A stretch of 64,000 bases of DNA from Candidatus Iainarchaeum sp. (lineage in GTDB: Archaea > B1Sed10-29 > WALL01): contig JAGGYF010000028.1 in the NCBI GenBank assembly GCA_021162685.1, positions 4,699 through 68,698 on the forward strand, written 5' to 3'. Position 1 is the stretch's first letter. Each line of letters begins with the position of its first letter. A program made the position numbers and the translations under genes. Positions 18,114 through 33,548 of the stretch are shown here, piece by piece. The notes under the pieces were generated by a model. That model did no database searches. It was not told the DNA's origin and was given only the letters and a program-made list of their open reading frames with translations.

Positions 18114-20888
18114 TTGGTGAGAAGAATGAAAAAAGCCTTAGCAATCCTCTTGTTGGTTTGTGCTGCAGCAGCACTTCCAGACCTAGCAATAGAACGTTTT
18201 TCTCATGAGCTAGGTGAAGATTTTACAGTAAGCTTTACTGCTGTAATTACAAACAAAGGGACTAACTCAACAGAATCCTGTATAATGGCTTTTTCCCAGG
18301 ATGAAGAATGGGCAAATAATAAAATAATAACTATTGGCGCTCTTGAACCAGGCCAGTCCCAAAAAATCAACTGGCAATGGGAGTACTATGAGCCAGGTGA
18401 AAAAAAGCCAGGCATTTTTGTTGACGCATTTAATCCTGAATGCCAATGCTATCAAGGACCTGGTCATGCTGGAAGCATTGAAGAAGAAAACGAGGAAAAC
18501 AATGTCGCTTATCTGAGTTTTGAACTTGAAGCAGAGAATAAGCCGCCAGTAGCGATACTTGCTGTTCCAGTAAGTGTTTGCTTAGAAGGAGGAGAATGCA
18601 CTCCTCCTTGCTCAGTTGGCAAGCCATGCAGGTTTGATTGCTCGCAAAGCTACGACCCTGACGGCTTTATTAGCTGTTGGAGCATTGAATTCGGTGATGG
18701 AACAGCCCAAGCGTCAGAATGCGCAGCAGAAAAAGAAAACAAGCCTGGCGTGATCGAGCACAGCTACACTAAACCAGGAATCTACGAAGTCAAACTTACT
18801 GTCACTGATAACAAGGGAGCTAGTGGTTCAGCTACCGCAGGAATACAGGTCGGTGAAGTCACCAACCAGCCACCAGTAGCAAAAATAAGGCAAGTGGGCG
18901 ACTGCTATGCTTCCCAAAACTGTAATTTTGACGGGTCAAACTCTTATGATGCTGATGGGAAAATAGTGAAGTTTACTGTTGACTTTGGTGATGGTGAAAC
19001 CATTTCCTCAGAAGGCAGTCCAGCAGGGTTCGGGCATTCTTATTCAAGGCCCGGCACTTACGGAGTAACCCTCACCGTATTTGATGACAAAGGAGAAAAA
19101 GGATACGATAAAATTCTTGTCGAAGTTGAAGAATCCCCACTAGAAGAAGGCGTAGTGGAACTAGCAAAATGCCTTGGAGAAAAAAGTGTCCTTTACACGA
19201 ATGATGTCTGTCCATACTGCATAAAACAAAAAAGGCTTTTTGGAAACGCTTACCAGTACTTAACTGTCATGGACTGCGGCATTGACCTCTCCTTATGCAA
19301 AGAAGTGAAAGGTGTACCGACTTGGGAGATAAATGGAGTTAAATACACTGGTTACAAGTCCCTTGAAGAATTAAAGCAATTGAGTGGGTGTGGGGTTCCT
19401 GTTGAGGGATTGTATGCAAAAATCGGGGAGGAGTTTACCCTCTCAATAAACCAGCCAGTAAAAATAGTAGACTATATTGACTCCCATGCAAATCCATTGA
19501 AAATCACGCTACTAAGCATCAACCCGATCTGCCACCCTAAAGAACCGTGTCCCACTGTTATTCCTTATGCCCAAGTAAAAGCAGAGTTTAGTGGAGAAAC
19601 CGAAGTGCGAAAGATTACTACTGGAAGTGAAATAAATTTATTTGGGGTTGTATTGCGCACCATTAGCGTTGACAACATAGCACCGGGGTCAGTAACGCTT
19701 GTTGTCAAAAAGCCAGGAGTTATGTACTGCGAGCCAAACGTGGAATACCATTTTACCAACAAGTGCAAGTGTCCAGAAGGAACAAACTTGGTGTGGTTAA
19801 GCCGCTCTGTTTTTGTCTGCAAGAAAGAAGAGATTGTCCATGCGCGGCTGGGTCAAGCCTTTGAACTAAAGCCCAAGCAAATAGCGAAACTAATGGATTA
19901 TAGAGTCTTGACAATGCGTTTGGACAGCATTGTTTCTTCAGAAAACAAGAAAGCGGCTATTATCACTGTATGGCCAACATATGAGAGAGTCACCTTGGTG
20001 AAAGAGGAACCAATAACAGAAAAAGCAACAATGAGGCCTGTGACAGCCACCGCAGGCAAGGTAGTGACAGGTGTAAAAGTAGTACCAAGTATTACCAAGC
20101 CTGTTGAATCCCCACCAATTGTTCCCAGGCAATACCAAGTTTTAGAAGGAGAGTCAGTTAACGTGTTTGGAGTTAGGATGATGGTTAAAGAATTAACTGA
20201 AAGGTCTGCAGTATTTGTGATAACAAAGCAGACACCTTGGACTTCATGCGACCAAGCATGCAAGCAGAAGGGTTATGCAGGAGGACACTGCTCGTCAGCA
20301 TGTACAGGAGTTAGCATCGGAGAGGAGTTCTGTCCACAGCCAGTATTTGAAGCCAAAGAAGAGACACCCCCTCTTCCTCCAGTGCTGAGTTGCTGCTGCC
20401 AGCCAGAAGAAGAAACAATAAAAATTGTTATTCACAAGGGGTGGAACTTGTTCTCGATGCCTGGTGAAATAAGACCTGTATCAGAAAAGTGTGACAGCAG
20501 GAATTGGAGGGTTTTTGAGTATAACAGGGAAACAAGAAAATTTGAGGCAGTCAAATGGCCTGAGATTGGCAAGGCTTATTGGCTTTATGCTGACAAGCCC
20601 TGCACTGCAGAAGTGAGAATATCAAAACCTGTTTTGCTGGAAGAACTTGAGGGTATTTTGCCTGGTTGGAACCTCGTGCCAGTAGTTCCTGATATGATTG
20701 GAAAATCCCTTGAAGAATTAAGTGATTGTACTGGGCTGAAGGTTTACACATACGATACCAGCAGCAGGAAGTGGATAAAAGTGGATAAAATAACAGAAGA
20801 ATTCTATGGAAGGGGTCTGGCAGTAAAATCAGAGCTCAAATGCTCTTTTAACACACTGCCTTCCATTCCCCCTTTCCCAGAGGAGTGA
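18114..20888 (+). CDS. giant secreted Cys-rich surface protein: signal peptide, CARDB-like domain, two PKD domains, thioredoxin-fold domain with CPYC motif, and a Cys-rich C-terminal region
   Basis: N-terminal signal peptide MKKALAILLLVCAAAALP; PKD signatures CRFDCSQSYDPDG...FGDGT...YTKPGIYEVKLTVTDNKG and NFDGSNSYDADG...FGDGE...YSRPGTYGVTLTVFDDKG; CPYC at nt 19208-19219; many Cys throughout. Confidence 0.8.
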   Translation: MVRRMKKALAILLLVCAAAALPDLAIERFSHELGEDFTVSFTAVITNKGTNSTESCIMAFSQDEEWANNKIITIGALEPGQSQKINWQWEYYEPGEKKPGIFVDAFNPECQCYQGPGHAGSIEEENEENNVAYLSFELEAENKPPVAILAVPVSVCLEGGECTPPCSVGKPCRFDCSQSYDPDGFISCWSIEFGDGTAQASECAAEKENKPGVIEHSYTKPGIYEVKLTVTDNKGASGSATAGIQVGEVTNQPPVAKIRQVGDCYASQNCNFDGSNSYDADGKIVKFTVDFGDGETISSEGSPAGFGHSYSRPGTYGVTLTVFDDKGEKGYDKILVEVEESPLEEGVVELAKCLGEKSVLYTNDVCPYCIKQKRLFGNAYQYLTVMDCGIDLSLCKEVKGVPTWEINGVKYTGYKSLEELKQLSGCGVPVEGLYAKIGEEFTLSINQPVKIVDYIDSHANPLKITLLSINPICHPKEPCPTVIPYAQVKAEFSGETEVRKITTGSEINLFGVVLRTISVDNIAPGSVTLVVKKPGVMYCEPNVEYHFTNKCKCPEGTNLVWLSRSVFVCKKEEIVHARLGQAFELKPKQIAKLMDYRVLTMRLDSIVSSENKKAAIITVWPTYERVTLVKEEPITEKATMRPVTATAGKVVTGVKVVPSITKPVESPPIVPRQYQVLEGESVNVFGVRMMVKELTERSAVFVITKQTPWTSCDQACKQKGYAGGHCSSACTGVSIGEEFCPQPVFEAKEETPPLPPVLSCCCQPEEETIKIVIHKGWNLFSMPGEIRPVSEKCDSRNWRVFEYNRETRKFEAVKWPEIGKAYWLYADKPCTAEVRISKPVLLEELEGILPGWNLVPVVPDMIGKSLEELSDCTGLKVYTYDTSSRKWIKVDKITEEFYGRGLAVKSELKCSFNTLPSIPPFPEE

Positions 20889-22634: not shown

Positions 22635-22732
22635 AGTATCACTCCTTTTATTAATCAACCGAAATATTTATATATAATTTTGAATATAAATTCATTACTG
22701 TATTGAATATATATTCAAAAGGAGGTGAATAT

Positions 22733-23065
22733 ATGCCATATGGAGATGGAACAGGACCTTTAGGATTAGGACCAATGACTGGAAGAGGTCTTGGATACTG
22801 CGCTGGATATAATGCTCCAGGTTTTGTTTTTGGCCCAGGTTGGGGCAGAGGAAGAGGCTGGCGCAGAGGATGGGGCAGAGGATTTGGATGGAGGTTTTGG
22901 GGTGCACCATATTGGAGAGCACCATATCCACAACAATACTGGAAACCAACAAAGGAGGAAGAAAAGACCATATTACAAGAAGAACTAAAAGCTTTAGAAG
23001 AAGAAATGAAGGCAATTGAAGAGGAAAGAAAAGCCATCCAGAAAAAACTTGCAGAGCTGAAGTAG
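22733..23065 (+). CDS. DUF5320 family protein (Gly/Arg/Trp-rich N-terminus, C-terminal coiled coil)
   Basis: GPLGLGPMTGRGLGYCAGYNAPGF...GWGRGRGWRRGWGRGFGW, then a coiled coil EEEKTILQEELKALEEEMKAIEEERKAIQKKLAELK; strong SD AAAGGAGGTGA. Confidence 0.6.
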   Translation: MPYGDGTGPLGLGPMTGRGLGYCAGYNAPGFVFGPGWGRGRGWRRGWGRGFGWRFWGAPYWRAPYPQQYWKPTKEEEKTILQEELKALEEEMKAIEEERKAIQKKLAELK

Positions 23066-23497
23066 ATGCCAAGACCAAGAAAACCCAGGTTGGTTGCAGG
23101 CGTCCCATCTATAACATATTTCAAACCTGCTGGCGTGCCTTTGCGTGGGGTTGATGAGGTAGTGTTAACAGTTGAGGAATATGAGGCTATAAAACTAAAA
23201 GACCTCGAAGGAAAGACACAGGAAGAAGCAGCAAAAGAGATGGATGTATCGCAACCAACATTCTTTAGAATATTAGAAAGCGCAAGGAAAAAGATTAGCG
23301 ATGCAATTGTTAATGGAAAGGTAATACGTATAGAAGGAGGTAGTTATATGGTAGGAAGAGGAAGAATGGGAGGGAGCGCACTTGGACCAGGAGGTTACTG
23401 TGTATGCCCAAAGTGTGGATATAAGGTTCCACATCAGAGGGGTGTTCCGTGCTATAGTATGACATGTCCAAAGTGTGGAACACAGATGACAAGGTGA
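23066..23497 (+). CDS. DUF134 (UPF0251) HTH DNA-binding protein with C-terminal Cys4 zinc ribbon
   Basis: MPRPRKPR...F.P.G.P...[39 protein letters not shown] is the DUF134 signature; C-terminus CVCPKCG...CPKCG. Confidence 0.75.
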
Positions 23498-23501
23498 AAA
23501 G

Positions 23502-23864
23502 ATGAAAGTCATCAGGAACCCGAATTGGATAGAAGGAAAGGGCGAGATGAAATACAAGAAGAGGATTTTGATGGAGAATGTCCCACCTTCAGTTAATTTA
23601 ATAGAGGATGTTGTGATACCACCAGGTGGGAAGATCCCCTCACATGCACACAAGGCAACAACCGAGTTGTTTTATATAACAAGTGGGAAGGCAAGGATGA
23701 AAGTCCAGAATAAAGAGTTTGAGGTTAACCCAAAAGATATGGTTTTAGTTGAGGTTGGGGAGAGTCATAGCTTTATCAATAATTCAGATGAAGATTTTGA
23801 AATGATAGTGCTTAAAATAAATTTCAGAAAAGATGACGCAATTTTATATGAGGTGAAAAAATGA
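23502..23864 (+). CDS. cupin domain protein
   Basis: Cupin beta-barrel motifs with conserved His (PPGGKIPSHAHKATTELFYITSGKARM...GESHSF). Confidence 0.6.
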   Translation: MKVIRNPNWIEGKGEMKYKKRILMENVPPSVNLIEDVVIPPGGKIPSHAHKATTELFYITSGKARMKVQNKEFEVNPKDMVLVEVGESHSFINNSDEDFEMIVLKINFRKDDAILYEVKK

Positions 23865-24259
23865 GAATAGCAGTAGCTTCGTCAGGACCAGGGCTTAATG
23901 CAGAAGCAAGCCCAATGTTTGGGAGATGTCCCTTTTTTGTAATTGTCAACATTGAGGAAAACAATATAAAGGAAGTTAAAAGCATTCCAAATACTGCAAC
24001 AGCATATCGTGGCGGAGCAGGTATATCGGCAGCAGAACTTGTGGGCAATGAGAACGTTGATGCAGTAATAGCTGGTGCAATAGGACCAAGGGCGTTTGAT
24101 GTGCTTAAACAGCTTGGGATAAAGCAATACATTGGCGTGCCAGGAACCGTAGAAAAAAACATTGACCTACTACTTAAAGGAGAGCTTAAAATGGTCGGCA
24201 GTCCAACAGGACCAATGAGGATGCCTCCTGGAAGAAGGGGCAGGAGAGGAGGTCAATAA
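23861..24259 (+). CDS. NifX/NafY/NifB-C-terminal-like dinitrogenase FeMo-cofactor-binding family protein
   Basis: MRIAVASSGPGL...FGRCPFFVIVNIEEN...GAG...AELV...VDAVIAGAIGPRAFDVL..LGIK matches the Nitro_FeMo-Co fold family. Confidence 0.75.
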   Translation: MRIAVASSGPGLNAEASPMFGRCPFFVIVNIEENNIKEVKSIPNTATAYRGGAGISAAELVGNENVDAVIAGAIGPRAFDVLKQLGIKQYIGVPGTVEKNIDLLLKGELKMVGSPTGPMRMPPGRRGRRGGQ

Positions 24260-24260
24260 A

Positions 24261-24470
24261 ATGCCAGAAGGAGTACCACGAACTGATGAAGAAAGAAGGG
24301 AAAGGCACAAGGAGAAATATGGAACAGAGGAAATCCCAGAAGAACGAAAAGGAAAGGCATCAAAAGCACTTGAGCAGAAGAAGAATCTGATTTTGGCTAT
24401 AAAGGTAGTGCTGGTGCTTGCAATTCTTTACTTTCTCTGGATAATTGTCAAGAGGGGTTGGGTTACTTGA
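24261..24470 (+). CDS. small membrane protein (single C-terminal TM)
   Basis: 69 aa with a charged N-terminus and one TM helix; sits inside the translationally coupled operon. Confidence 0.35.
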   Translation: MPEGVPRTDEERRERHKEKYGTEEIPEERKGKASKALEQKKNLILAIKVVLVLAILYFLWIIVKRGWVT

Positions 24471-25711
24471 ACAAGCTGAAACAAGGAGAGAGGGCAGCAG
24501 CAAAAGTGAGTGTGGGAACCCTAATCTTATCGCTAACAAAGGGAATTGTTGGATACATCACAGGAAGCACTGCTCTGGTAACAGATGCATTTCATTCCTT
24601 AGCAGACCTTATTGCTGCTGCGTCCTCCTGGTTTGGCCTAAAGATCTCACAGAGAAAACCAGATGAAATATTCCCTTACGGATATTACAAAGCAGAAAAT
24701 CTCGCTGGTCTGGTAGTTGCGTTGGTGATACTATACGCTGCTGCAACCCTACTTTTTGAAGGATTTTCCCGTATTGGTAAACCTGCAACAATACATGAAC
24801 CAATGCTCGCAATTGCAACGTCTATTGTATCCATTGGAATCGCATTTCTTTTCTATAAATATCTTAAGGCAGTAGGAGAGAAGATCAATTCGCCATCGTT
24901 AAAAGCAAATGCTAATGATAAACTTGTAGATATGGCATCTTCTTCGTTGGTGTTTATTGCCCTTGTGGCATCTTACCTAAACATACCTTACATTGAAGGA
25001 ATCGTGACAGTATTGATCTCGTTTTTAGTGATGAAAATTGGCCTAGAAACCGCAAAAGATTCTGTTCTGGCACTTATGGATGTCAGTCCGAGCAAGGATA
25101 TTGAAAAAAGGCTGGAATCTGTTTTATTATCTGTAAAAGGTGTAAGAAAAATAAAAAATCTCAAGCTTAGGAAAGCTGGGCCATTTGTATTTGGTGATGT
25201 TGAAATAGAAGTAAAAGGAAGTATTGATGTAAAAAGGGCACACAGTATAACAGAGGAGATACAAAAGAGTGTGAAGAGGAACATAAAAGAGATAGAGTTC
25301 ATTACAGTACATGTTGAGCCACATAAACCAAGAAGGCAAAAGGTTGTTGTTCCTGTGGAGAATGCAGATGGTATGCGTTCAAAAATAGTGAAGCATTTCG
25401 GGAGAGCCAGATACTTTGTTCTTGTTGAGCTGGATAATAACAAGGTAAAGAAACACAAGGTAGTAAAAAATCCATTTATTGGTGAAAAGATAAGGGCGGG
25501 TCTAAAAACTGCTGGATTTCTTGCTGAAAAAGGGATTGATGCTGTGATAACAAAATCAATAGGTGAGATCTCATTCCATACGCTAAGAGACCACTTTGTG
25601 GAAATCTACCACGCAAAAGGTGAGAATGTTGATGATACTATAAAGCTTTTTATTAGAGGGAAACTTAGACTACTTCGCAGACCGACAAAAGAAGCTGGCG
25701 GAATTGCATGA
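24458..25711 (+). CDS. cation diffusion facilitator (CDF) metal transporter fused to a C-terminal NifX-like cofactor-binding domain
   Basis: N-terminal 6-TM CDF with HSLADL motif and cytoplasmic CTD; the C-terminal 110 aa (VVVPVENADGMRSKIVKHFGRARYFVLV...GIDAVITKSIGEISFHTLRDHFVEIY) resemble the NifX-like protein at 23861; TTG start. Confidence 0.75.
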   Translation: MGYLNKLKQGERAAAKVSVGTLILSLTKGIVGYITGSTALVTDAFHSLADLIAAASSWFGLKISQRKPDEIFPYGYYKAENLAGLVVALVILYAAATLLFEGFSRIGKPATIHEPMLAIATSIVSIGIAFLFYKYLKAVGEKINSPSLKANANDKLVDMASSSLVFIALVASYLNIPYIEGIVTVLISFLVMKIGLETAKDSVLALMDVSPSKDIEKRLESVLLSVKGVRKIKNLKLRKAGPFVFGDVEIEVKGSIDVKRAHSITEEIQKSVKRNIKEIEFITVHVEPHKPRRQKVVVPVENADGMRSKIVKHFGRARYFVLVELDNNKVKKHKVVKNPFIGEKIRAGLKTAGFLAEKGIDAVITKSIGEISFHTLRDHFVEIYHAKGENVDDTIKLFIRGKLRLLRRPTKEAGGIA

Positions 25712-26544
25712 GGATATGTATAACAGGAGGAAAAGGTGGGACAGGTAAGTCATTGATAGCAACATCGCTCGCCTATCATCTTGGAAAAAATCACAAGGTG
25801 CTTCTTGTTGACCTAGATGTTGATTGCCCAAATGACCATCTTATACTGTCAACAAAAAGGGAGGTGTTAAAGGAGGTAAAACAGACCATTCCTGTGCTTA
25901 ACGAAAACAGATGTAAAAAATGTGGGATATGCAGTAATATATGCAGGGAGAATGCCATAGTATTCATAAGAAAACGATTTCCTATCTTCCTTCTTGACCA
26001 GTGTAATGGATGTAAAGCATGTATGGTTGCATGCCCTGCAAATGCAATAGAGGAAGGAGAGCGCGCATATGGTGTAATCTATAAGGGAAAAAATGAACGG
26101 ATTGACATGCTAGTAGCAGAACTCGTGCCAGGACAAAAAGAGGGCTCTCCTTTGGTACATGAAGCAATAAAACTTGTGGGTGAGAACAAAAAATACGATT
26201 TTGTTATTATGGATACTGCAGCAGGAATGCATTGTACTGTCATATCTGCACTTAGAGAATGCGACTATATACTCGCTGTAACCGAACCCACACCATTGGG
26301 CGCACATGATCTCAACCTAATCCTTGATTTAATTGATGAATTAAACATTCCTTCTGGTGTTATATTAAACAAGAGGGGCATTGGAAACGAGAAAGAGGTA
26401 AGAGAAATCACAAAAAGGCATGGAAAGAAGATTGTTGCAGATGTCCCATACAGTAAAGAGGTCATGGAAGCGTATTCCAAAGGCATCCCAGTACCGATTC
26501 GGTTTGTTGAGAAGTTGGTCTCATTTGTGGAGGAGATGAAATGA
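25708..26544 (+). CDS. MinD/Mrp-family P-loop ATPase with inserted double 4Fe-4S ferredoxin domain (COG1149-like, CooC-related)
   Basis: Deviant Walker [10 protein letters not shown]; two Cys clusters [11 protein letters not shown] and [12 protein letters not shown]. Confidence 0.8.
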
Positions 26545-26927
26545 AGGGTATATATGTACTCATTATAGATATTTCAAAGGATGTAACAATCAGAGTTGGC
26601 TCGCTTGGTAATATGCTTTTCAAAAAAGGTACGTATGCATATGTTGGATCTGCCCAAAACAATGTTGAAAAGAGGATTAGAAGGCACATGAATAAGAAGA
26701 AGAAATTATTCTGGCACATTGATTATCTTCTGAAAGAACCAGGGATTAGAATAAGAAGGGTGTTATACAAAAAAGCACCAAAAACAGAGGAATGCAGAAC
26801 AGCATCTGTTATCAGCAAAAGAGGGGAGGCAATTCCACAATTCGGATGCTCTGATTGTAAATGCAATAGCCATCTTTTTAAGATCACAGAGATGCCACTA
26901 AGAGGGTTTAGAGAGGTGATTACCTGA
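26541..26927 (+). CDS. DUF123 family GIY-YIG-like domain protein
   Basis: KGIYVLII...[20 protein letters not shown] matches the archaeal DUF123 / GIY-YIG clan signature; C-terminal Cys pairs (CSDCKC). Confidence 0.6.
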
Positions 26928-26995
26928 ATCCTATTTACGGTCCTGTACCCTCATGGAGACTTGGAGTTTCACTTGGAGTAGACCCTGTATGCAAA

Positions 26996-27685
26996 ATGCC
27001 AAAAATTTGCTCATTTGATTGTATCTATTGTCAGTTGGGAAGAACGGTCGTAAAAACGACAAAAAGGGAGAAATTTGTTGAAGCGGAGATTGTTCGCAGA
27101 GAGTTGAAGAAGGCATTACGTATTGTAACACCAGACGTTATAACATTCTCTGGGGTATCAGAACCAACACTTGCATCAAATATTTCAGACATCGTGAATG
27201 TAATAAAAGAGGAAACCGATATCCCTGTTGCTATTCTAACAAATGCTTCCCTTATATACAAAAAGGAGGTTATGGACGACCTCATGCATTTTGATATTGT
27301 ATGTGCGAAACTTGATGCTCCAAACCAAAAGATATTTGAGCAGGTAAACAGACCATCATACGGAATAAAAATTGATGATATTATCAACGGAATAAAAGAA
27401 TTTAGAAAAGGATTCACGGGGAAACTCGCACTACAAATTATGTTAGTTAACGAAAATAAACCATACGTGAAAGAAATTGCTAACATAGCAAGGGATATAA
27501 AACCTGATGAGATTCAACTTGATACTCCTCTTAGACCCTGTCCTGTACCTGCCCTTCCAGAGGAGGAGATGTATGAGGCAAAGCAATGCTTTGATGGATT
27601 GAATGTGATAATGGTGTATGATAGGAAAAAACCAGAGGCAAAAGCAATAGATAAGTATGAGACACACCTGAGGAGACCCACATGA
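26996..27685 (+). CDS. short radical SAM enzyme (CxxxCxxC)
   Basis: CSFDCIYC at residues 5-12 of the ATG-initiated ORF; the in-frame upstream peptide YGPVPSWRLGVSLGVDPV (open from 26912, after a TAG) resembles the conserved N-terminus of this radical SAM subfamily, so the real start is probably a non-ATG codon near 26924-26933. Confidence 0.7.
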   Translation: MPKICSFDCIYCQLGRTVVKTTKREKFVEAEIVRRELKKALRIVTPDVITFSGVSEPTLASNISDIVNVIKEETDIPVAILTNASLIYKKEVMDDLMHFDIVCAKLDAPNQKIFEQVNRPSYGIKIDDIINGIKEFRKGFTGKLALQIMLVNENKPYVKEIANIARDIKPDEIQLDTPLRPCPVPALPEEEMYEAKQCFDGLNVIMVYDRKKPEAKAIDKYETHLRRPT

Positions 27686-28566
27686 TAAAAATCACAGTAG
27701 TTTCTGGAAAGGGAGGAGTTGGAAAGAGTAGCATAGCAGCATCCATGGCACTGGTCTTGTCAAAAAACAGAGATATTGTTGCTGTTGATTGTGATGTTGA
27801 TGCACCAAACCTTGGGCTGTTGCTTGGTGTAAAAAAGGAGGGCTTCTCATACAAAGAAGTAGGTACAAAAGAGAAAGCGTCTCTCATAGAAGATAGGTGT
27901 ATAAGATGTAGAAAATGCGTGGATATCTGTGTGTTTTCAGCTATCTCATGGGATAACCTACCGATATTTGATAAATATCTGTGTGAGGGATGCGGAGCGT
28001 GCCAACTTGTATGTCCTGTTGATGCAATTGAACTCATAAAAGTGCAGAATGCATTTATTGGATTTACTGACACACAGTATGGGTTCCCTGTTGTTGGTGG
28101 TCAGCTAAAACCAGGAGAATCTGGGTCTGGTGATGTAGTAACATTAGTAAAGGAAAAGGCAGAGGAGATAGCTAACAAAAGAGGGATTGAGACAATGATT
28201 ATAGACTCTGCAGCAGGTATTGGTTGTCCTGTGATTGCCTCAGTAACGGGTTCAGATTACGTTGTCGCTGTCACAGAACCAACACCCGCAGCATTTAGTG
28301 ACCTTAAGAGGGTTTTGGAAGTTGTTGAACATTTCAACATACCATATGGGATAATTATCAATACATGGAACACCAATCCAGCGTTTACAGAAAAGATTGA
28401 GAAATTCGCTTCTGAGAACGAAATAACGTTACTTGGAAAAATCCCATATGACAAAGCCTTTATTGATGCCTTGGTTCAGCTGATGCCTGTTGTTGCTTAC
28501 GATAAGAGGTTTAAAAAATTGTTTAAAAGTATTCTAGAAAAAACTCTGGCAGAGGTAGAGAAATGA
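27682..28566 (+). CDS. second MinD/Mrp-family P-loop ATPase with inserted 4Fe-4S ferredoxin domain
   Basis: Deviant Walker A SGKGGVGKS; CIRCRKCVDIC and CEGCGACQLVCP. Confidence 0.8.
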   Translation: MIKITVVSGKGGVGKSSIAASMALVLSKNRDIVAVDCDVDAPNLGLLLGVKKEGFSYKEVGTKEKASLIEDRCIRCRKCVDICVFSAISWDNLPIFDKYLCEGCGACQLVCPVDAIELIKVQNAFIGFTDTQYGFPVVGGQLKPGESGSGDVVTLVKEKAEEIANKRGIETMIIDSAAGIGCPVIASVTGSDYVVAVTEPTPAAFSDLKRVLEVVEHFNIPYGIIINTWNTNPAFTEKIEKFASENEITLLGKIPYDKAFIDALVQLMPVVAYDKRFKKLFKSILEKTLAEVEK

Positions 28567-29363
28567 AAAGGATTATTATGTTAATGGTGTTGACTATGCT
28601 TTTGGGTTGCATTCAGAAAACAGAAAAATTTGAGGGGGTTTCTGCTGCTTCTGGCAGCATAAGGATCATAACACTTTATGACAACAATCCTTACGATGAA
28701 CGTTTTGAAACGGGTTTTGGCTATTCTTCATTAATTCAAGCTGGAAACAATACTATACTCTTTGACACAGGAGGAGATAGCATCACACTTTTAAGAAACA
28801 TGGAAAAGGCTGGGGTAAAGCCTGAAACAATAAACATTATTGTGCTTTCCCACATACATGGTGATCATACTGGCGGTCTTCTTGGCTTACTTGAGCATAC
28901 GAAAGCCCCCATTGTATACCTTCCATCATCGTTCCCTCAAGATTTTAAAGAAAAGGTAAAGACCAATGCAAAACTTGTTGAAGTCAGTGCGCCATCTGAA
29001 ATAAGCAAGGGGATTTATTCAACAGGAGAGCTTGGAACATGGATAAAAGAACAGTCACTAATCATAAAAAGCAGTAAGGGAATTATAATAATTACAGGGT
29101 GCGCTCATCCAGGGATTGTTGAAATCGTTAAGAAAGCAAAGGAGATTACTGGCGAAAGGGTTTACTTGGTTCTGGGCGGGTTTCATCTCAATGGCGCAAG
29201 TGAGAATGAGATCAGGAACATTGTTAGGGAATTCAGGGAGCTTGGAGTGGAAAAAGTAGCACCATGCCATTGTACTGGAGAAACTGCCACAAAAATTTTT
29301 AAAGAAGAATATAAAGAGTATTTCATAGAAAACGGGGTTGGAAAAACAGTAGTGGTAGAATGA
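28563..29363 (+). CDS. metallo-beta-lactamase-fold lipoprotein
   Basis: Lipobox-like LLGC after a signal peptide; HxHxDH motif SHIHGDHTGG. Confidence 0.7.
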   Translation: MKRIIMLMVLTMLLGCIQKTEKFEGVSAASGSIRIITLYDNNPYDERFETGFGYSSLIQAGNNTILFDTGGDSITLLRNMEKAGVKPETINIIVLSHIHGDHTGGLLGLLEHTKAPIVYLPSSFPQDFKEKVKTNAKLVEVSAPSEISKGIYSTGELGTWIKEQSLIIKSSKGIIIITGCAHPGIVEIVKKAKEITGERVYLVLGGFHLNGASENEIRNIVREFRELGVEKVAPCHCTGETATKIFKEEYKEYFIENGVGKTVVVE

Positions 29364-30193
29364 TTTTGGAAGCTTTAACAGAGACTTTGAAACTCCTTTT
29401 CATAGTTTTTATTCTTATGGTTGTAATTGAATATCTAGTCCTCAGATTTGAGAAAAAGATCAGAAGATATATTACAGGGAATCCTTTCACCCAGTATCTT
29501 GTGGCATCTGCGCTTGGTGCTATTCCAGGATGTATTGACGCATTTTTTGTCGTCTCTTTGTATACTGCTGGAATAGTAGGCTTTGGGGCCCTGGCTGCTG
29601 TAATGATTTCAACAGCAGGAGACGAGGCATTCATCATGCTTGCTATGATACCTGACACAGCCCTAATAATATTTGGAATCTGCTTTGTATTAGGCATTGT
29701 TGGTGGGTTCCTCGCTGACATTTTTGTTAAGAAGTTTAACCTCAAACTCAGTAAGAGTTGTTGCGTTCCAGTGCATAAAAAAGAAAAGGTAATAACATTG
29801 AAGCATTTTGTCAAAGAACATGTTCTCGGCCACATAGTGAAAAAGCACATGCCAAAGCTGTTCCTCTGGCTTTTTTTCACACTCCTTGTTATAAACTGGG
29901 CGCTTGCTAACCTTGAATTGCAATCCCTTCTTCCCAAAAACTACCTCTGGCTACTTGTTTTCGCAGCAATAGTTGGGATAATACCTGAATCAGGCCCCCA
30001 TATAATGTTTGTTGTGCTTTTTTCCAAGGGATTGATTCCCTTTTCAGTGCTCCTTGTGAACACTATAAGCCAGGATGGCCATGGTTTGCTCCCCTTGCTC
30101 TCACACTCAATAAAAGACACTATTTACCTACAAGTATTTACAACATTATTTGCCCTAGGGGTTGGAATAATTTTGTTTCTCTTAGGTGTTTAG
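29360..30193 (+). CDS. polytopic membrane protein, putative metal/metalloid permease (two repeats with Cys/acidic motifs)
   Basis: About 8 TM; internally repeated motifs GCIDAFF and TAGDEAF reminiscent of permease families. Confidence 0.45.
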
Positions 30194-30195
30194 GT

Positions 30196-30771
30196 ATGTT
30201 GGATGAAATTGCTGAAGAAATAAGAAAATGTAGAAGATGTGACCTATGGAAAACGAGAAAGAACACCGTACCAGGAGAAGGAAATGAAAATGCAGAGGTC
30301 ATGTTTATTGGAGAAGCACCTGGGAGAAAAGAAGATGAAACAGGAAAACCATTTGTTGGTGCTGCTGGAGATGTCTTGAACGAAATGCTTGATGGTATTG
30401 AATTGAAAAGAGAAGATGTTTTTATAACAAGTGTGTTGAAGTGTAGGCCCCCAAACAATAGAAATCCTAGACCAGATGAAATTGCTGCCTGTTCCTTATT
30501 TCTTGAAGAACAGATGAGAACTATAAAGCCAAGAGTAATTTGCACATTGGGGAATGTGGCAACTGCCTATCTCTTAAGGAGGTTTGGAATGAAACCGCAA
30601 CCAATTAGCAGAATACACGGAAAACCAATAAATATTGATACACTTGATTTGCATTTCACACTCATTCCGATGTATCATCCAGCAGCTGTCATATACAATG
30701 CTGGGATGAGGAATGCCTTAGTCAACGATTTTAAAACACTGAAGAAAGTGATTTATAGAAGAACGAGGTAG
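30196..30771 (+). CDS. udg: uracil-DNA glycosylase family 4 (Fe-S type)
   Basis: CRRCDL...[17 protein letters not shown] family 4 signature; H-P-A motif near the C-terminus. Confidence 0.85.
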
Positions 30772-30772
30772 T

Positions 30773-32836
30773 ATGGTTATGCCTGAGAAGATACGAAAAA
30801 GGGATGGGAGTGTTGTAAAATTTGACCAGAGGAGGATAACAAAGGCCATAGAAAGAGCAATAAAAGCCATAGGAAAAAAGGATGGAAAACTTGCTAAAAA
30901 ACTCTCGGATAGGGTTGTCAAAAAACTTGGAAAGGTAAAAATCACAACAGTTGAGAGGGTACAAGACGTTGTTGAAGAAGTTTTGGTGGAGTACGGCAAT
31001 GTAAAACTTGTGAGAGCGTATATTAGGTACAGATACCAACATGAAAAACTTAGAAAAACAAAGAGCCTATTTGAAGAAACCGATAAAATCATTGATAGTT
31101 ATCTGAAACAAAAGGATTGGAGAGTTAGGGAAAACAGTAACATCACGTATTCATTTGCTGGGCTCGTCATGTATGTATCAAATGCAGCAATTGCAAACTA
31201 CACTCTTGATAGAATCTATCCAGCGGAGATATCAAAAGCGCACAAATCAGGAGATATACACATACATGACTTACAGTTCGGATTAACAGGCTATTGCGCT
31301 GGTTGGTCACTAAAACAATTATTGCTTGATGGATTTGGTGGAGTTCCTGGAAGAACATCATCAAAGCCTGCAAAGCACTTTGATACCGCATTGTTGCAGA
31401 TGGTGAACTTTTTAGGTACGCTACAAAATGAATGGGCTGGAGCAATGGCATTTAGCTCTGTTGACACATACCTAGCACCATTTGTAGCCAAAGATAAACT
31501 CAGCTATAAGCAAGTACTCCAGGGCATGCAGAAGTTCATTTTCAATCTGAATATAACATCAAGGTGGGGCGGGCAGACACTATTCACAAATGTTACATTT
31601 GATTGGAAAGCACCAGAAGACCTAAGAGAAGAGCACATTATTATCGGAGGCAAACAATTAAGGCAGACATATGGCGAGTTCCAAGATGAAATGGACATGA
31701 TAAACAAGGCATTCATAGAGATCATGATGCAAGGAGATGCAAATGGAAGACCTTTCACTTTCCCAATACCAACATATAACATAACAAAAGAATTTGATTG
31801 GAATTCAGAAAATGCTGATCTACTGTTTGAGATGACAGCAAAATATGGGCTGCCCTACTTCTCAAACTTTGTTAATAGTGACTTGGATCCAAAAGATATA
31901 CGAAGCATGTGCTGCCACCTCAGACTGGATTTGAGACAACTTGAGAGGAATATCACTGGTGGATTATTTGGCTCTGCTGAACTTACTGGTTCTGTTGGCG
32001 TTGTAACCATAAATATGCCAAGGATTGGGTATCTGAGCAAAGATGAGGTAGAATTTTTTGAGAGACTTGATAAACTTATGGAGATAGCAAAAAACTCATT
32101 AGAGATAAAAAGAAAGGTTGTAGCAAGAAACATGGAAAATGGGTTGTTGCCATACTCAAAACGGTATTTGGGCAGTCTAGCAAACCACTTCTCAACTATT
32201 GGTCTTGTGGGAATGAATGAGGCTTGCCTTAATCTCTTCGGAAAGGACATAAGTACCAAAAAGGGAAAAGCATTTGCTGAAAGAACATTGAAACACATGC
32301 TTGAAAGATTGAAGGATTTCCAGGAAGAAACAGGAAACCTCTACAATCTAGAAGCAACACCTGCAGAAGGGTCATCATATAGATTGGCTTATCTTGACAA
32401 AAAGAAGTATCCAAAGATCATCACAGCAAGTAAGGAAGTTCCTAGATATACAAACTCAACGTGGCTGCCTGTGGATAAAACAGACGACGTTATCTATGCG
32501 CTAAAACATCAAGAAGCATTACAAACATTGTATACTGGTGGTACTGTTTTCCATGCATTTTTTGGAGAACGATTGAATAGCGGGAAGGCATGTAAGCGAT
32601 TTGTTAAAAAGGTCATGTATAAAACAAGGATTCCATACCTAACAGTTACACCAACATTTAGTATTTGCCAGGAGCATGGATACATTGTTGGTGAAGAAAA
32701 AACCTGTCCTATATGCGGAAAAGAAACAGAGGTGTATAGTAGAGTTGTTGGATATTTCAGACCAGTAAAGGATTGGAACCCTGGGAAGCAGCAGGAATTC
32801 AAGGAGAGAAAAACATACAATCCAAAGAAGGCGTAG
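30773..32836 (+). CDS. nrdD: anaerobic ribonucleoside-triphosphate reductase (class III RNR)
   Basis: N-terminal ATP-cone; C-terminal Zn ribbon CPICGKE plus glycyl-radical region (RVVGYFRPVKDWNPGKQQEFKERK). Confidence 0.9.
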   Translation: MVMPEKIRKRDGSVVKFDQRRITKAIERAIKAIGKKDGKLAKKLSDRVVKKLGKVKITTVERVQDVVEEVLVEYGNVKLVRAYIRYRYQHEKLRKTKSLFEETDKIIDSYLKQKDWRVRENSNITYSFAGLVMYVSNAAIANYTLDRIYPAEISKAHKSGDIHIHDLQFGLTGYCAGWSLKQLLLDGFGGVPGRTSSKPAKHFDTALLQMVNFLGTLQNEWAGAMAFSSVDTYLAPFVAKDKLSYKQVLQGMQKFIFNLNITSRWGGQTLFTNVTFDWKAPEDLREEHIIIGGKQLRQTYGEFQDEMDMINKAFIEIMMQGDANGRPFTFPIPTYNITKEFDWNSENADLLFEMTAKYGLPYFSNFVNSDLDPKDIRSMCCHLRLDLRQLERNITGGLFGSAELTGSVGVVTINMPRIGYLSKDEVEFFERLDKLMEIAKNSLEIKRKVVARNMENGLLPYSKRYLGSLANHFSTIGLVGMNEACLNLFGKDISTKKGKAFAERTLKHMLERLKDFQEETGNLYNLEATPAEGSSYRLAYLDKKKYPKIITASKEVPRYTNSTWLPVDKTDDVIYALKHQEALQTLYTGGTVFHAFFGERLNSGKACKRFVKKVMYKTRIPYLTVTPTFSICQEHGYIVGEEKTCPICGKETEVYSRVVGYFRPVKDWNPGKQQEFKERKTYNPKKA

Positions 32837-32843
32837 TGGTTGG

Positions 32844-33548
32844 ATGGAATTTAAAGGATTACAAAAGTTAACATTAATAGACTATCCTGGAAAATTGGCA
32901 TGCATAGTATTTACAGGAGGCTGTAATCTCAGATGTCCATTCTGCCAAAACAAGGACCTTGTTCTGAATTATGAAAAACTGCCATCAATATCAGAAGAAG
33001 AAATCATTAAGTTCCTTGAATCAAGAAGGAAATGGTTGGATGGGATTGTTATTACTGGTGGAGAGCCAACAATACACAGTGACCTACCAGAATTTATAAA
33101 AAAAGTTAAAGAGAGGAGGTTTCTTGTCAAGTTGGACACAAATGGCTCAAACCCGGCTATGTTGAAGATGCTTATTGAAAATAGACTCATTGATTATATC
33201 GCAATGGATGTCAAAGCACCATTGGAATGGGAAAAATACAGTAAAGCATCTGGCATAAAAAACAGAGAGATATTTGAGAACATCTTGAAGAGCATAGACA
33301 TACTTATGCACTCAAACATTGATTATGAGTTCAGGACAACTGTTGTTCCAGGATTGCACACAGAGGAGGACATCTTAAAAATTGCTGAGCAGTTGAAAGG
33401 AGCAAGGGCATATTATCTACAACAGTTTAGGCCAAGAACTACGTTGGACCCAAACTATGAAAAGATAGAGCCATATCCAAGAAAAATGCTTGAGAAACTT
33501 GTTGAAAAGATAAAAGGTTACTTTAAACATTGTGGTGTCAGAGGCTAA
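32844..33548 (+). CDS. nrdG: anaerobic RNR activating enzyme (radical SAM)
   Basis: CNLRCPFCQN radical SAM motif; immediately downstream of nrdD. Confidence 0.85.
   Translation: MEFKGLQKLTLIDYPGKLACIVFTGGCNLRCPFCQNKDLVLNYEKLPSISEEEIIKFLESRRKWLDGIVITGGEPTIHSDLPEFIKKVKERRFLVKLDTNGSNPAMLKMLIENRLIDYIAMDVKAPLEWEKYSKASGIKNREIFENILKSIDILMHSNIDYEFRTTVVPGLHTEEDILKIAEQLKGARAYYLQQFRPRTTLDPNYEKIEPYPRKMLEKLVEKIKGYFKHCGVRG

Follow-up and report, generated by a model that had tools for sequence, protein, structure and literature searches.

A radical SAM gene in a Candidatus Iainarchaeum operon that appears to begin at a CTG codon overlapping the stop of its DUF123 neighbour

The DNA described here, called the window in what follows, is a stretch of 64,000 nucleotides from Candidatus Iainarchaeum sp. 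(contig JAGGYF010000028.1, positions 4,699 to 68,698), and positions are counted from its first letter. It carries a gene for a radical SAM (rSAM) protein, which is placed between a DUF123 gene and a MinD/CbiA-type ATPase gene; these and all other operon genes given below are on the plus strand. The DUF123 gene (26541-26927) encodes a GIY-YIG-fold protein of 128 amino acids with a C-terminal FGCSDCxCxSH motif (PF01986 at 1.2e-28, GIY-YIG at 1e-4), and its ATG at 26541 overlaps, as ATGA, the stop codon of a first MinD/CbiA-type ATPase with an inserted 2x[4Fe-4S] ferredoxin domain (25708-26544). At its other end the rSAM gene terminates with TGA 27683-27685, which lies over ATG 27682 of a second MinD/CbiA-type ATPase with a ferredoxin domain (27682-28566); the resulting ATGA (27682-27685) is the overlap already described in an earlier note on this DNA.

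Counted from its first ATG, the rSAM frame extends from 26996 to 27685 and encodes 229 amino acids matching PF04055 at 2e-14 (54.5 bits against a gathering cut-off of 29.5). This is also the form in the public record (P0001), a 229 amino acid product named radical SAM protein of Candidatus Diapherotrites archaeon and starting at ATG 26996; its expected tryptic N-terminus is MPK/ICSFDCIYCQLGR. The radical SAM [4Fe-4S] motif CxxxCxxC (C-S-F-D-C-I-Y-C, 27008-27031) follows only four residues past this ATG (M-P-K-I-C-S-F-D-C-I-Y-C). Upstream of the ATG the frame is open as far as an in-frame TAG at 26909-26911, and between this stop and 26996 it encodes 28 residues. The earlier note had drawn attention to both features, and direct reading of the sequence gave the same coordinates. 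From the TAG to 26996 there is no ATG, GTG or TTG in the rSAM frame; the stretch contains CTG 26924 and ATT 26933. Genetic code table 11 includes CTG among its initiators.

A protein search with the frame translated from 26924 gave 7,868 relatives, of which the best 119 non-self matches were compared. These homologues are 251-300 amino acids long, mostly 251-262; they are 49-57% identical to the extended query and align with 96-100% of its length. Not one of them begins at the position of the internal ATG, and all carry the upstream segment, with YGP[VI]xSWR near the N-terminus in 119/119, a conservation well above what chance could produce; the conserved N-terminus of GPVPSRRLG type that the earlier note expected upstream of the ATG is thus present, and the homologue alignment it proposed as a check came out in its favour. 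The annotated Met of the homologues stands exactly 4 residues ahead of the invariant Tyr in 105/119, and CTG 26924 aligns on this Met1 (LNPIYGPV in the window, MNPIYGPV or MKPIYGPV in the homologues, with MNPIYGPV in P0049 and P0117). Only with CTG 26924 as start does the protein show the traits of the family, which are M-x-x-[VI]-YGP[VI]xSWRLG, a length of 251-262 amino acids, TPLR and C-terminal RR motifs; the full-length gene as proposed (26924-27685) would encode 253 amino acids including the initiator, in agreement with homologue length and coverage.

The 24 codons without public annotation (26924-26995) correspond to the segment in which the family is best conserved. Over the 23 residues after the start the mean top-residue frequency is 0.82, versus 0.66 for the remainder; of the 47 columns with a conservation of at least 97%, 11 fall in this segment, and residues 2-24 of the window protein are 70% identical to the homologues versus 51% for the rest of the protein. 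An AF2 model built on the alignment (pLDDT 97.2) has strands at residues 4-10 and 14-19, a predicted beta-hairpin (residues 4-19) just ahead of the cluster loop. Since this hairpin is probably integral to the fold, a protein begun at ATG 26996 would very likely have no activity. From these sequence comparisons the annotated 229 amino acid open reading frame (ORF) is predicted to be a truncation, with the gene beginning at 26924 and the annotated start ATG (26996-26998) being an internal Met codon. With the conserved N-terminus encoded ahead of the annotated ATG, initiation must be non-canonical.

CTG 26924 (26924-26926) shares bases with the DUF123 stop TGA 26925-26927, forming a 4-nucleotide CTGA overlap. 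From the CDF-NifX fusion gene through ArsP_2 there are seven junctions, of which six are ATGA overlaps; the CTGA is the one exception and lies in their middle. Given its six ATGA neighbours, the CTGA junction is taken to be of the same kind with a single base changed. Within the 3' end of the DUF123 gene, 3 nucleotides ahead of the CTG, is the Shine-Dalgarno (SD)-like GAGGTGAT (26913-26920). Its duplex with a generic, assumed anti-SD (GAUCACCUCCU) has an energy of -13.6 kcal/mol, which is stronger than at all 82 gene starts of the window (the first start of each long ORF; median -6.3) and places the site among the top 0.15% of background positions. With Rfam, two tRNAs were the only matches over the window, and there was no 16S rRNA; the generic anti-SD is plausible because the motif aGGTGAt recurs before window genes. 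The distance from GGTGA to the CTG is 9 nucleotides, the modal spacing of window ATG genes (9/17; range 6-11). No SD precedes ATG 26996, where the duplex energy of -2.6 kcal/mol is ordinary background.

Of the two start codons considered in the earlier note, CTG 26924 is favoured by the Met1 alignment, the CTGA overlap and the SD spacing. ATT 26933, at 18 nucleotides from GGTGA, falls beyond the range of 6-11 and was rejected on this spacing and on the homologue Met1 alignment. The DUF123-rSAM junction has the NTGA stop/start overlap and the SD inside the upstream gene at functional spacing which are expected of a translationally coupled pair; it does not have a canonical restart codon (ATG, GTG or TTG), the codon being CTG. 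Coupling of the two genes, also suggested in the earlier note, recurs with ATGA elsewhere: at L034 the DUF123-to-rSAM order is the same, the overlap is a normal ATGA and a GGGTGA SD is present, and at L008 the order is reversed, rSAM-to-DUF123, again with an ATGA overlap. Overall, 4-nucleotide overlaps of rSAM and DUF123 genes were seen in both gene orders and in three lineages.

The C at 26924 is not an assembly or sequencing error. The same protein and the same CCTGA are found on two contigs that were assembled independently from two other samples; one matches the window at 100% identity and the other differs at 4 sites, all in the downstream MinD ATPase gene (three synonymous, one not). Among 80 species-representative genome loci and the loci L003-L007, all have ATG, GTG or TTG at a distance of 4-12 codons ahead of the Tyr, most often exactly 4 (46 ATG, 6 GTG, 2 TTG), and the window population is the sole exception among about 85 loci in lacking a canonical start here. 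The ORF itself shows no sequence sign of decay: it is full length and keeps 70 of the 73 columns that are at least 90% conserved, and its three mismatches lie within the range of normal homologues, which have a median of 2 and a 90th percentile of 4.

Taken together, the sequence data argue that ATG was replaced by CTG at a termination-reinitiation junction and that the gene is intact and probably weakly translated from CUG; we put the probability of this reading at about 0.6. Ribosomes finishing DUF123 would terminate at UGA 26925-26927, the tail of the 16S rRNA would pair with GAGGUGAU (26913-26920) and so hold the terminated ribosomes, and these would then re-initiate with initiator tRNA on the overlapping near-cognate CUG, which is mismatched at the first position, as are GUG and UUG. 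The output would be the full-length enzyme, probably at a small fraction of the yield obtained from AUG, and the unusually strong SD may partly offset the weak codon.

In archaea and bacteria, termination-reinitiation is the way in which overlapping ATGA gene pairs are translated, and the upstream gene typically contains an SD (Huber et al. 2019, PMC6728339). The window junction shares with these pairs the 4-nucleotide overlap, the SD in the upstream gene at normal spacing and the run of such junctions; it differs in the restart codon, which is CTG here and ATG there, and CTG/CUG does not occur in that paper. ATGA-overlap pairs often encode subunits of complexes (PMC10666635). In E. coli, the only system measured and one in which all 64 codons were covered, CUG initiates at a low but real level of about 1-2% of AUG (bioRxiv 10.1101/063800). 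Near-cognate initiation at CUG or AUU in bacteria has in common with the window the single first-position mismatch to the initiator anticodon, whereas the window host is an archaeon with a eukaryote-like set of initiation factors.

Several points weigh against CUG re-initiation. A review of archaeal translation gives AUG, GUG and UUG only as start codons (PMC7531240), and the abstract of another paper likewise names only these three (PMC4705826). In the QxMF motif of the window protein a Leu replaces a Phe that is invariant in the 119 homologues (F174L, 27443-27445). The three assemblies probably sample one population, and fixation of the C therefore says little about selection; there are no single nucleotide polymorphisms inside the rSAM gene between them, so no constraint can be read from such sites. 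The anti-SD was assumed rather than read from the 16S rRNA of the host. Finally, a very recent loss of the start codon would look identical, because SD and ORF would not yet have decayed. As an observation on the enzyme itself, F174L is the only hint of an altered constraint in this lineage.

Such a recent start loss is the explanation that comes closest to CUG re-initiation, and we regard it as possible although clearly the less probable of the two. The change from ATG to CTG would have left the rSAM gene silent or nearly so, as a young pseudogene without further damage yet, and it would have been synonymous in the DUF123 frame if the ancestral codon was ACA (ACA to ACC, both Thr). In favour of a loss, the locus is the only one of about 85 without a canonical start, CUG is a very poor initiator where measured and not a recognised archaeal start, an invariant Phe has been replaced, and genomes of DPANN archaea readily lose genes. 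Against a loss stand the full-length ORF with its conserved columns, the strongest SD of the window kept exactly in register, the position of the gene mid-way in an operon of closely overlapping genes, where those further downstream rely on the flow of ribosomes, and an allele common to assemblies that differ elsewhere.

That ATG 26996 is the true start, and that an N-terminally truncated enzyme of 229 amino acids is functional in this lineage, is very improbable. It is the first canonical start in frame and the choice of the public annotation; it would delete 11 of 47 near-invariant positions together with the predicted beta-hairpin before the cluster loop, no homologue starts there, no SD lies upstream, and codons ahead of the true start, if not translated, should not have kept 70% identity to homologues. 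Just as improbable is a programmed -1 frameshift near the end of DUF123 giving a DUF123-rSAM fusion (rSAM lies in the -1 frame with respect to DUF123, this frame is open for 4 codons before the DUF123 stop, and a strong SD-like element is just upstream), or initiation at the near-cognate ATT 26933 despite its spacing. The frameshift was rejected since a slippery heptamer of the form X XXY YYZ is absent from GAG GTG ATT ACC TGA, no DUF123+Radical_SAM fusion is included in the best 120 homologues of either protein, RNA structure is not significant (z = 0.0) and the relatives have separate genes with Met1 at this very position.

With CUG re-initiation as the preferred reading, the encoded protein is predicted to be a minimal single-cluster radical SAM enzyme, with a [4Fe-4S] cluster on C29, C33 and C36 (numbered from the CTG), an SGxxEPT SAM-binding motif and the partial TIM-barrel fold of the superfamily. 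These three are the only invariant cysteines in 120 sequences, Cys23 being present in 81% and Cys206 in 76%; there are therefore no conserved ligands for an auxiliary cluster, which argues against a NifB-like cluster fusion. No curated NCBIfam family was above its cut-off for either the rSAM or the DUF123 protein. For rSAM the scores were 42.5 bits for the tungsten-cofactor maturase (cut-off 380), 40.1 for archaeal MoaA (325), 32.6 for viperin (NF038283; 180), 26.3 for NrdG2 (131.15), 24.8 for TYW1 (TIGR03972; 317.95), 22.5 for QueE (TIGR03963; 260.1) and 19.8 for PflA (PFLA; 231.75). The membership in Tyw1 or QueE which the earlier note had named as an alternative thus did not emerge. There was no sequence match in the PDB for either protein, and fold searches with rSAM found the generic rSAM core at 12-19% identity. 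With Foldseek the best E-value was for TYW1 (2yx0; 4e-10, TM score 0.62), with TM scores of 0.68 for PFL activating enzyme (PFL-AE) and 0.67 for both NifB and viperin.

Size and cluster position of the protein most resemble the small activase type of rSAM enzyme. However, identity to the PFL activating enzyme is 19%, the PFLA and NrdG2 models are below cut-off, the window rSAM has no adjacent glycyl-radical enzyme, and the NrdD of the operon has its own NrdG. TYW1 belongs to the same superfamily, and COG0731 is the label given to members of the family by JGI; in distinction to TYW1, the window protein has no Wyosine_form domain (Pfam gave PF04055 only) and no second cluster, and it is about 70 amino acids shorter (253 against 324 in TYW1 of P. 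horikoshii). Identity to NifB is 15%, with neither a fused NifX domain nor the conserved K1/K2 ligands, and no NifB model was among the NCBIfam matches at E up to 0.01; the split-NifB logic proposed in the earlier note is therefore not upheld, as only three cysteines are invariant. A defence function, with a viperin-like rSAM and a nuclease, was considered and rejected: PADLOC gave pVip at 40.5 bits over the rSAM core only and nothing for DUF123. As a working guess, the enzyme may act on a protein- or cofactor-bound substrate handled by the ORP-like cluster discussed below, and not in a cluster fusion of NifB type. In an uncultured archaeon the rSAM homologue reads into a class I SAM-dependent methyltransferase (Methyltransf_11, 2e-21) within an ORF of 471 amino acids (L031:7977-9389). 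If this fusion is real, it would be a hint that the substrate or product of the rSAM enzyme is also methylated.

The rSAM family is present in at least 591 species genomes, and hosts among the matches listed include DPANN archaea, Thermoplasmatota, Hadarchaeota, Methanosarcinales, Chloroflexota, Omnitrophota and Planctomycetia. Gene neighbourhoods were counted within 8 kb of rSAM at the 80 species-representative loci. ORP-like cluster genes were found at 49 of them; NifX-like genes were present at 40, MinD/Fer4 at 39 (directly adjoining rSAM in 13), DUF134 at 35, metallo-beta-lactamase (MBL) at 30, DUF5320 at 18 and DUF123 at 17. By its genomic context this appears as a widespread, uncharacterised rSAM family of anaerobes, tied to ORP-like NifX-like carriers and MinD/ferredoxin ATPases.

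The ORP gene set is confined to anaerobes, and the ORP complex receives Fe-S clusters from MrpORP and is linked to cell division (PMC6345978). The window locus and the ORP complex of D. vulgaris have domain types in common, which is a likeness in domain content only: two paralogous MinD/Fer4 ATPases (Orp3/Orp4, which the first ATPase of the window resembles in this respect) and a NifX-like protein (Orp8, Di-Nase). In the same paper radical SAM has no occurrence, and DUF134, DUF5320, MBL and DUF123 were not searched for in it. In the window the MrpORP model reached 62 bits against a cut-off of 450, and no OrpR-like gene was seen in the operon. A literature search on DUF134 or DUF123 with radical SAM, and on the COG identifiers, returned nothing relevant.

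The DUF123 protein matches PF01986 and has the GIY-YIG fold with its Tyr...Tyr...Arg...Glu set. Its gene accompanies rSAM in 17 of the 80 species loci and in at least six arrangements, seen in Woesearchaeota, Iainarchaeum, Methanosarcinales, an Omnitrophica bacterium, an uncultured archaeon and eleven Thermoplasmatota. In the reverse test, 3 of 80 metagenomic DUF123 loci, many of them on short contigs, carry rSAM or ORP-like genes, and the link of DUF123 to rSAM is therefore facultative. Elsewhere DUF123 keeps company with genes of DNA repair and replication; its neighbours on three long contigs are HhH-GPD glycosylases, PCNA, thymidylate kinase, Rad50/Mre11 or DUF5320. DUF123 is a probable nuclease that is recurrently tied to this rSAM.

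The closest syntenic locus, L003, has the order MinD-rSAM-MinD with a direct ATGA overlap and lacks DUF123, cupin and MBL. Because no DUF123 lies there between MinD and rSAM, the gene was probably inserted upstream of rSAM in the window lineage. It is placed exactly between the first MinD gene and rSAM (26541-26544), which overlap directly at L003:8001-8004, and all three genes that the window has in addition (cupin, DUF123, MBL) are seamless, each with an overlap or a gap of few nucleotides. The idea of a one-off mobile insertion was in part rejected: DUF123 is absent from L003, which would fit it, but occurs with rSAM in 17 of 80 loci. In Thermoplasmatota and several metagenome contigs a distant MinD/ParA-like ATPase directly precedes DUF123 (L013-L019, L033, L036, L049, L127, L135, L145, L151 and L164); it scores 40-54 bits to the MinD/Fer4 proteins of the window and is therefore of a different subfamily.

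The operon as a whole is a co-directional chain of 15 genes with gaps of at most 7 nucleotides (22703-33548), in the order DUF5320, DUF134, cupin, NifX-like, an ORF of 69 amino acids, CDF transporter-NifX fusion, MinD/Fer4, DUF123, rSAM, MinD/Fer4, MBL, ArsP_2, uracil-DNA glycosylase (UDG), NrdD and NrdG. Eight of its 14 junctions overlap, and genes for metal or cluster handling are mixed with genes of DNA metabolism (UDG, NrdD, NrdG). By Pfam, both ATPases are of the CbiA/ParA type, MBL is a metallo-beta-lactamase, the NifX-like (Nitro_FeMo-Co) gene is at 23861-24259, and at 24458-25711 a CDF cation-efflux transporter with a zinc-transporter dimerisation domain is fused at its C-terminus to a NifX-like Nitro_FeMo-Co domain. 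This fusion is also kept in L003, L010, L042 and others. The ORF of 69 amino acids between these two genes (24261-24470) has no Pfam match, a charged N-terminus and one hydrophobic helix; because it is conserved in L003 and L042 (58 and 65 bits) it probably encodes a real small membrane protein. The DUF5320 protein (22703-23065) has an extremely high content of Gly, Arg and Trp (GPGWGRGRGWRRGWGRGFGWRFWG) and ends in a coiled-coil tail. Its gene is repeatedly found together with DUF134 and NifX-like genes, and L170 has two copies directly upstream of a DUF123 gene.

The genes NrdD-NrdG (30773-33548) are located 3 kb downstream of rSAM. Anaerobic ribonucleotide reductase genes near rSAM are found in the window, in L168 (CP070798.1) and in L013, L014, L019, L033, L036 and L049, and two metagenomic DUF123 loci (L139, L151) also carry NrdD/NrdG. 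In Thermoplasmatota NrdR-NrdD-NrdG is divergent from rSAM, and CutA1 and DUF123 follow rSAM. The family-4-like UDG is syntenic in L003, L039 and L057 and is near DUF123 in L125. Upstream of the operon, at 18114-20888, is a secreted-looking protein of 924 amino acids with repeated PKD-like segments and many cysteines.

A more far-reaching proposal, which we hold only as a tentative one, is that in this DPANN archaeon CUG is a genuine start used through termination-reinitiation and an exceptional SD, setting a low dose of rSAM relative to DUF123, and that the rSAM family and DUF123 form a functional pair which acts with the ORP-like NifX/MinD-ferredoxin machinery on a substrate bound to protein, nucleic acid or cofactor. 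If CUG re-initiation is true, the locus would be a natural example of archaeal stop/start overlaps tolerating a fourth start codon, and CTGA versus ATGA is a ready-made and easily testable junction; no major paradigm is changed by it. For annotation, the deposited protein of 229 amino acids lacks the 24 residues most conserved in its family, and gene callers limited to ATG, GTG and TTG will repeat this error, with truncated sequences spreading to databases and structure predictions. For the family, the analysis delimits a large uncharacterised group of single-cluster radical SAM enzymes in anaerobic archaea and bacteria, whose recurrent ORP-like and DUF123 company provides experimentalists with a defined set of candidate partners.

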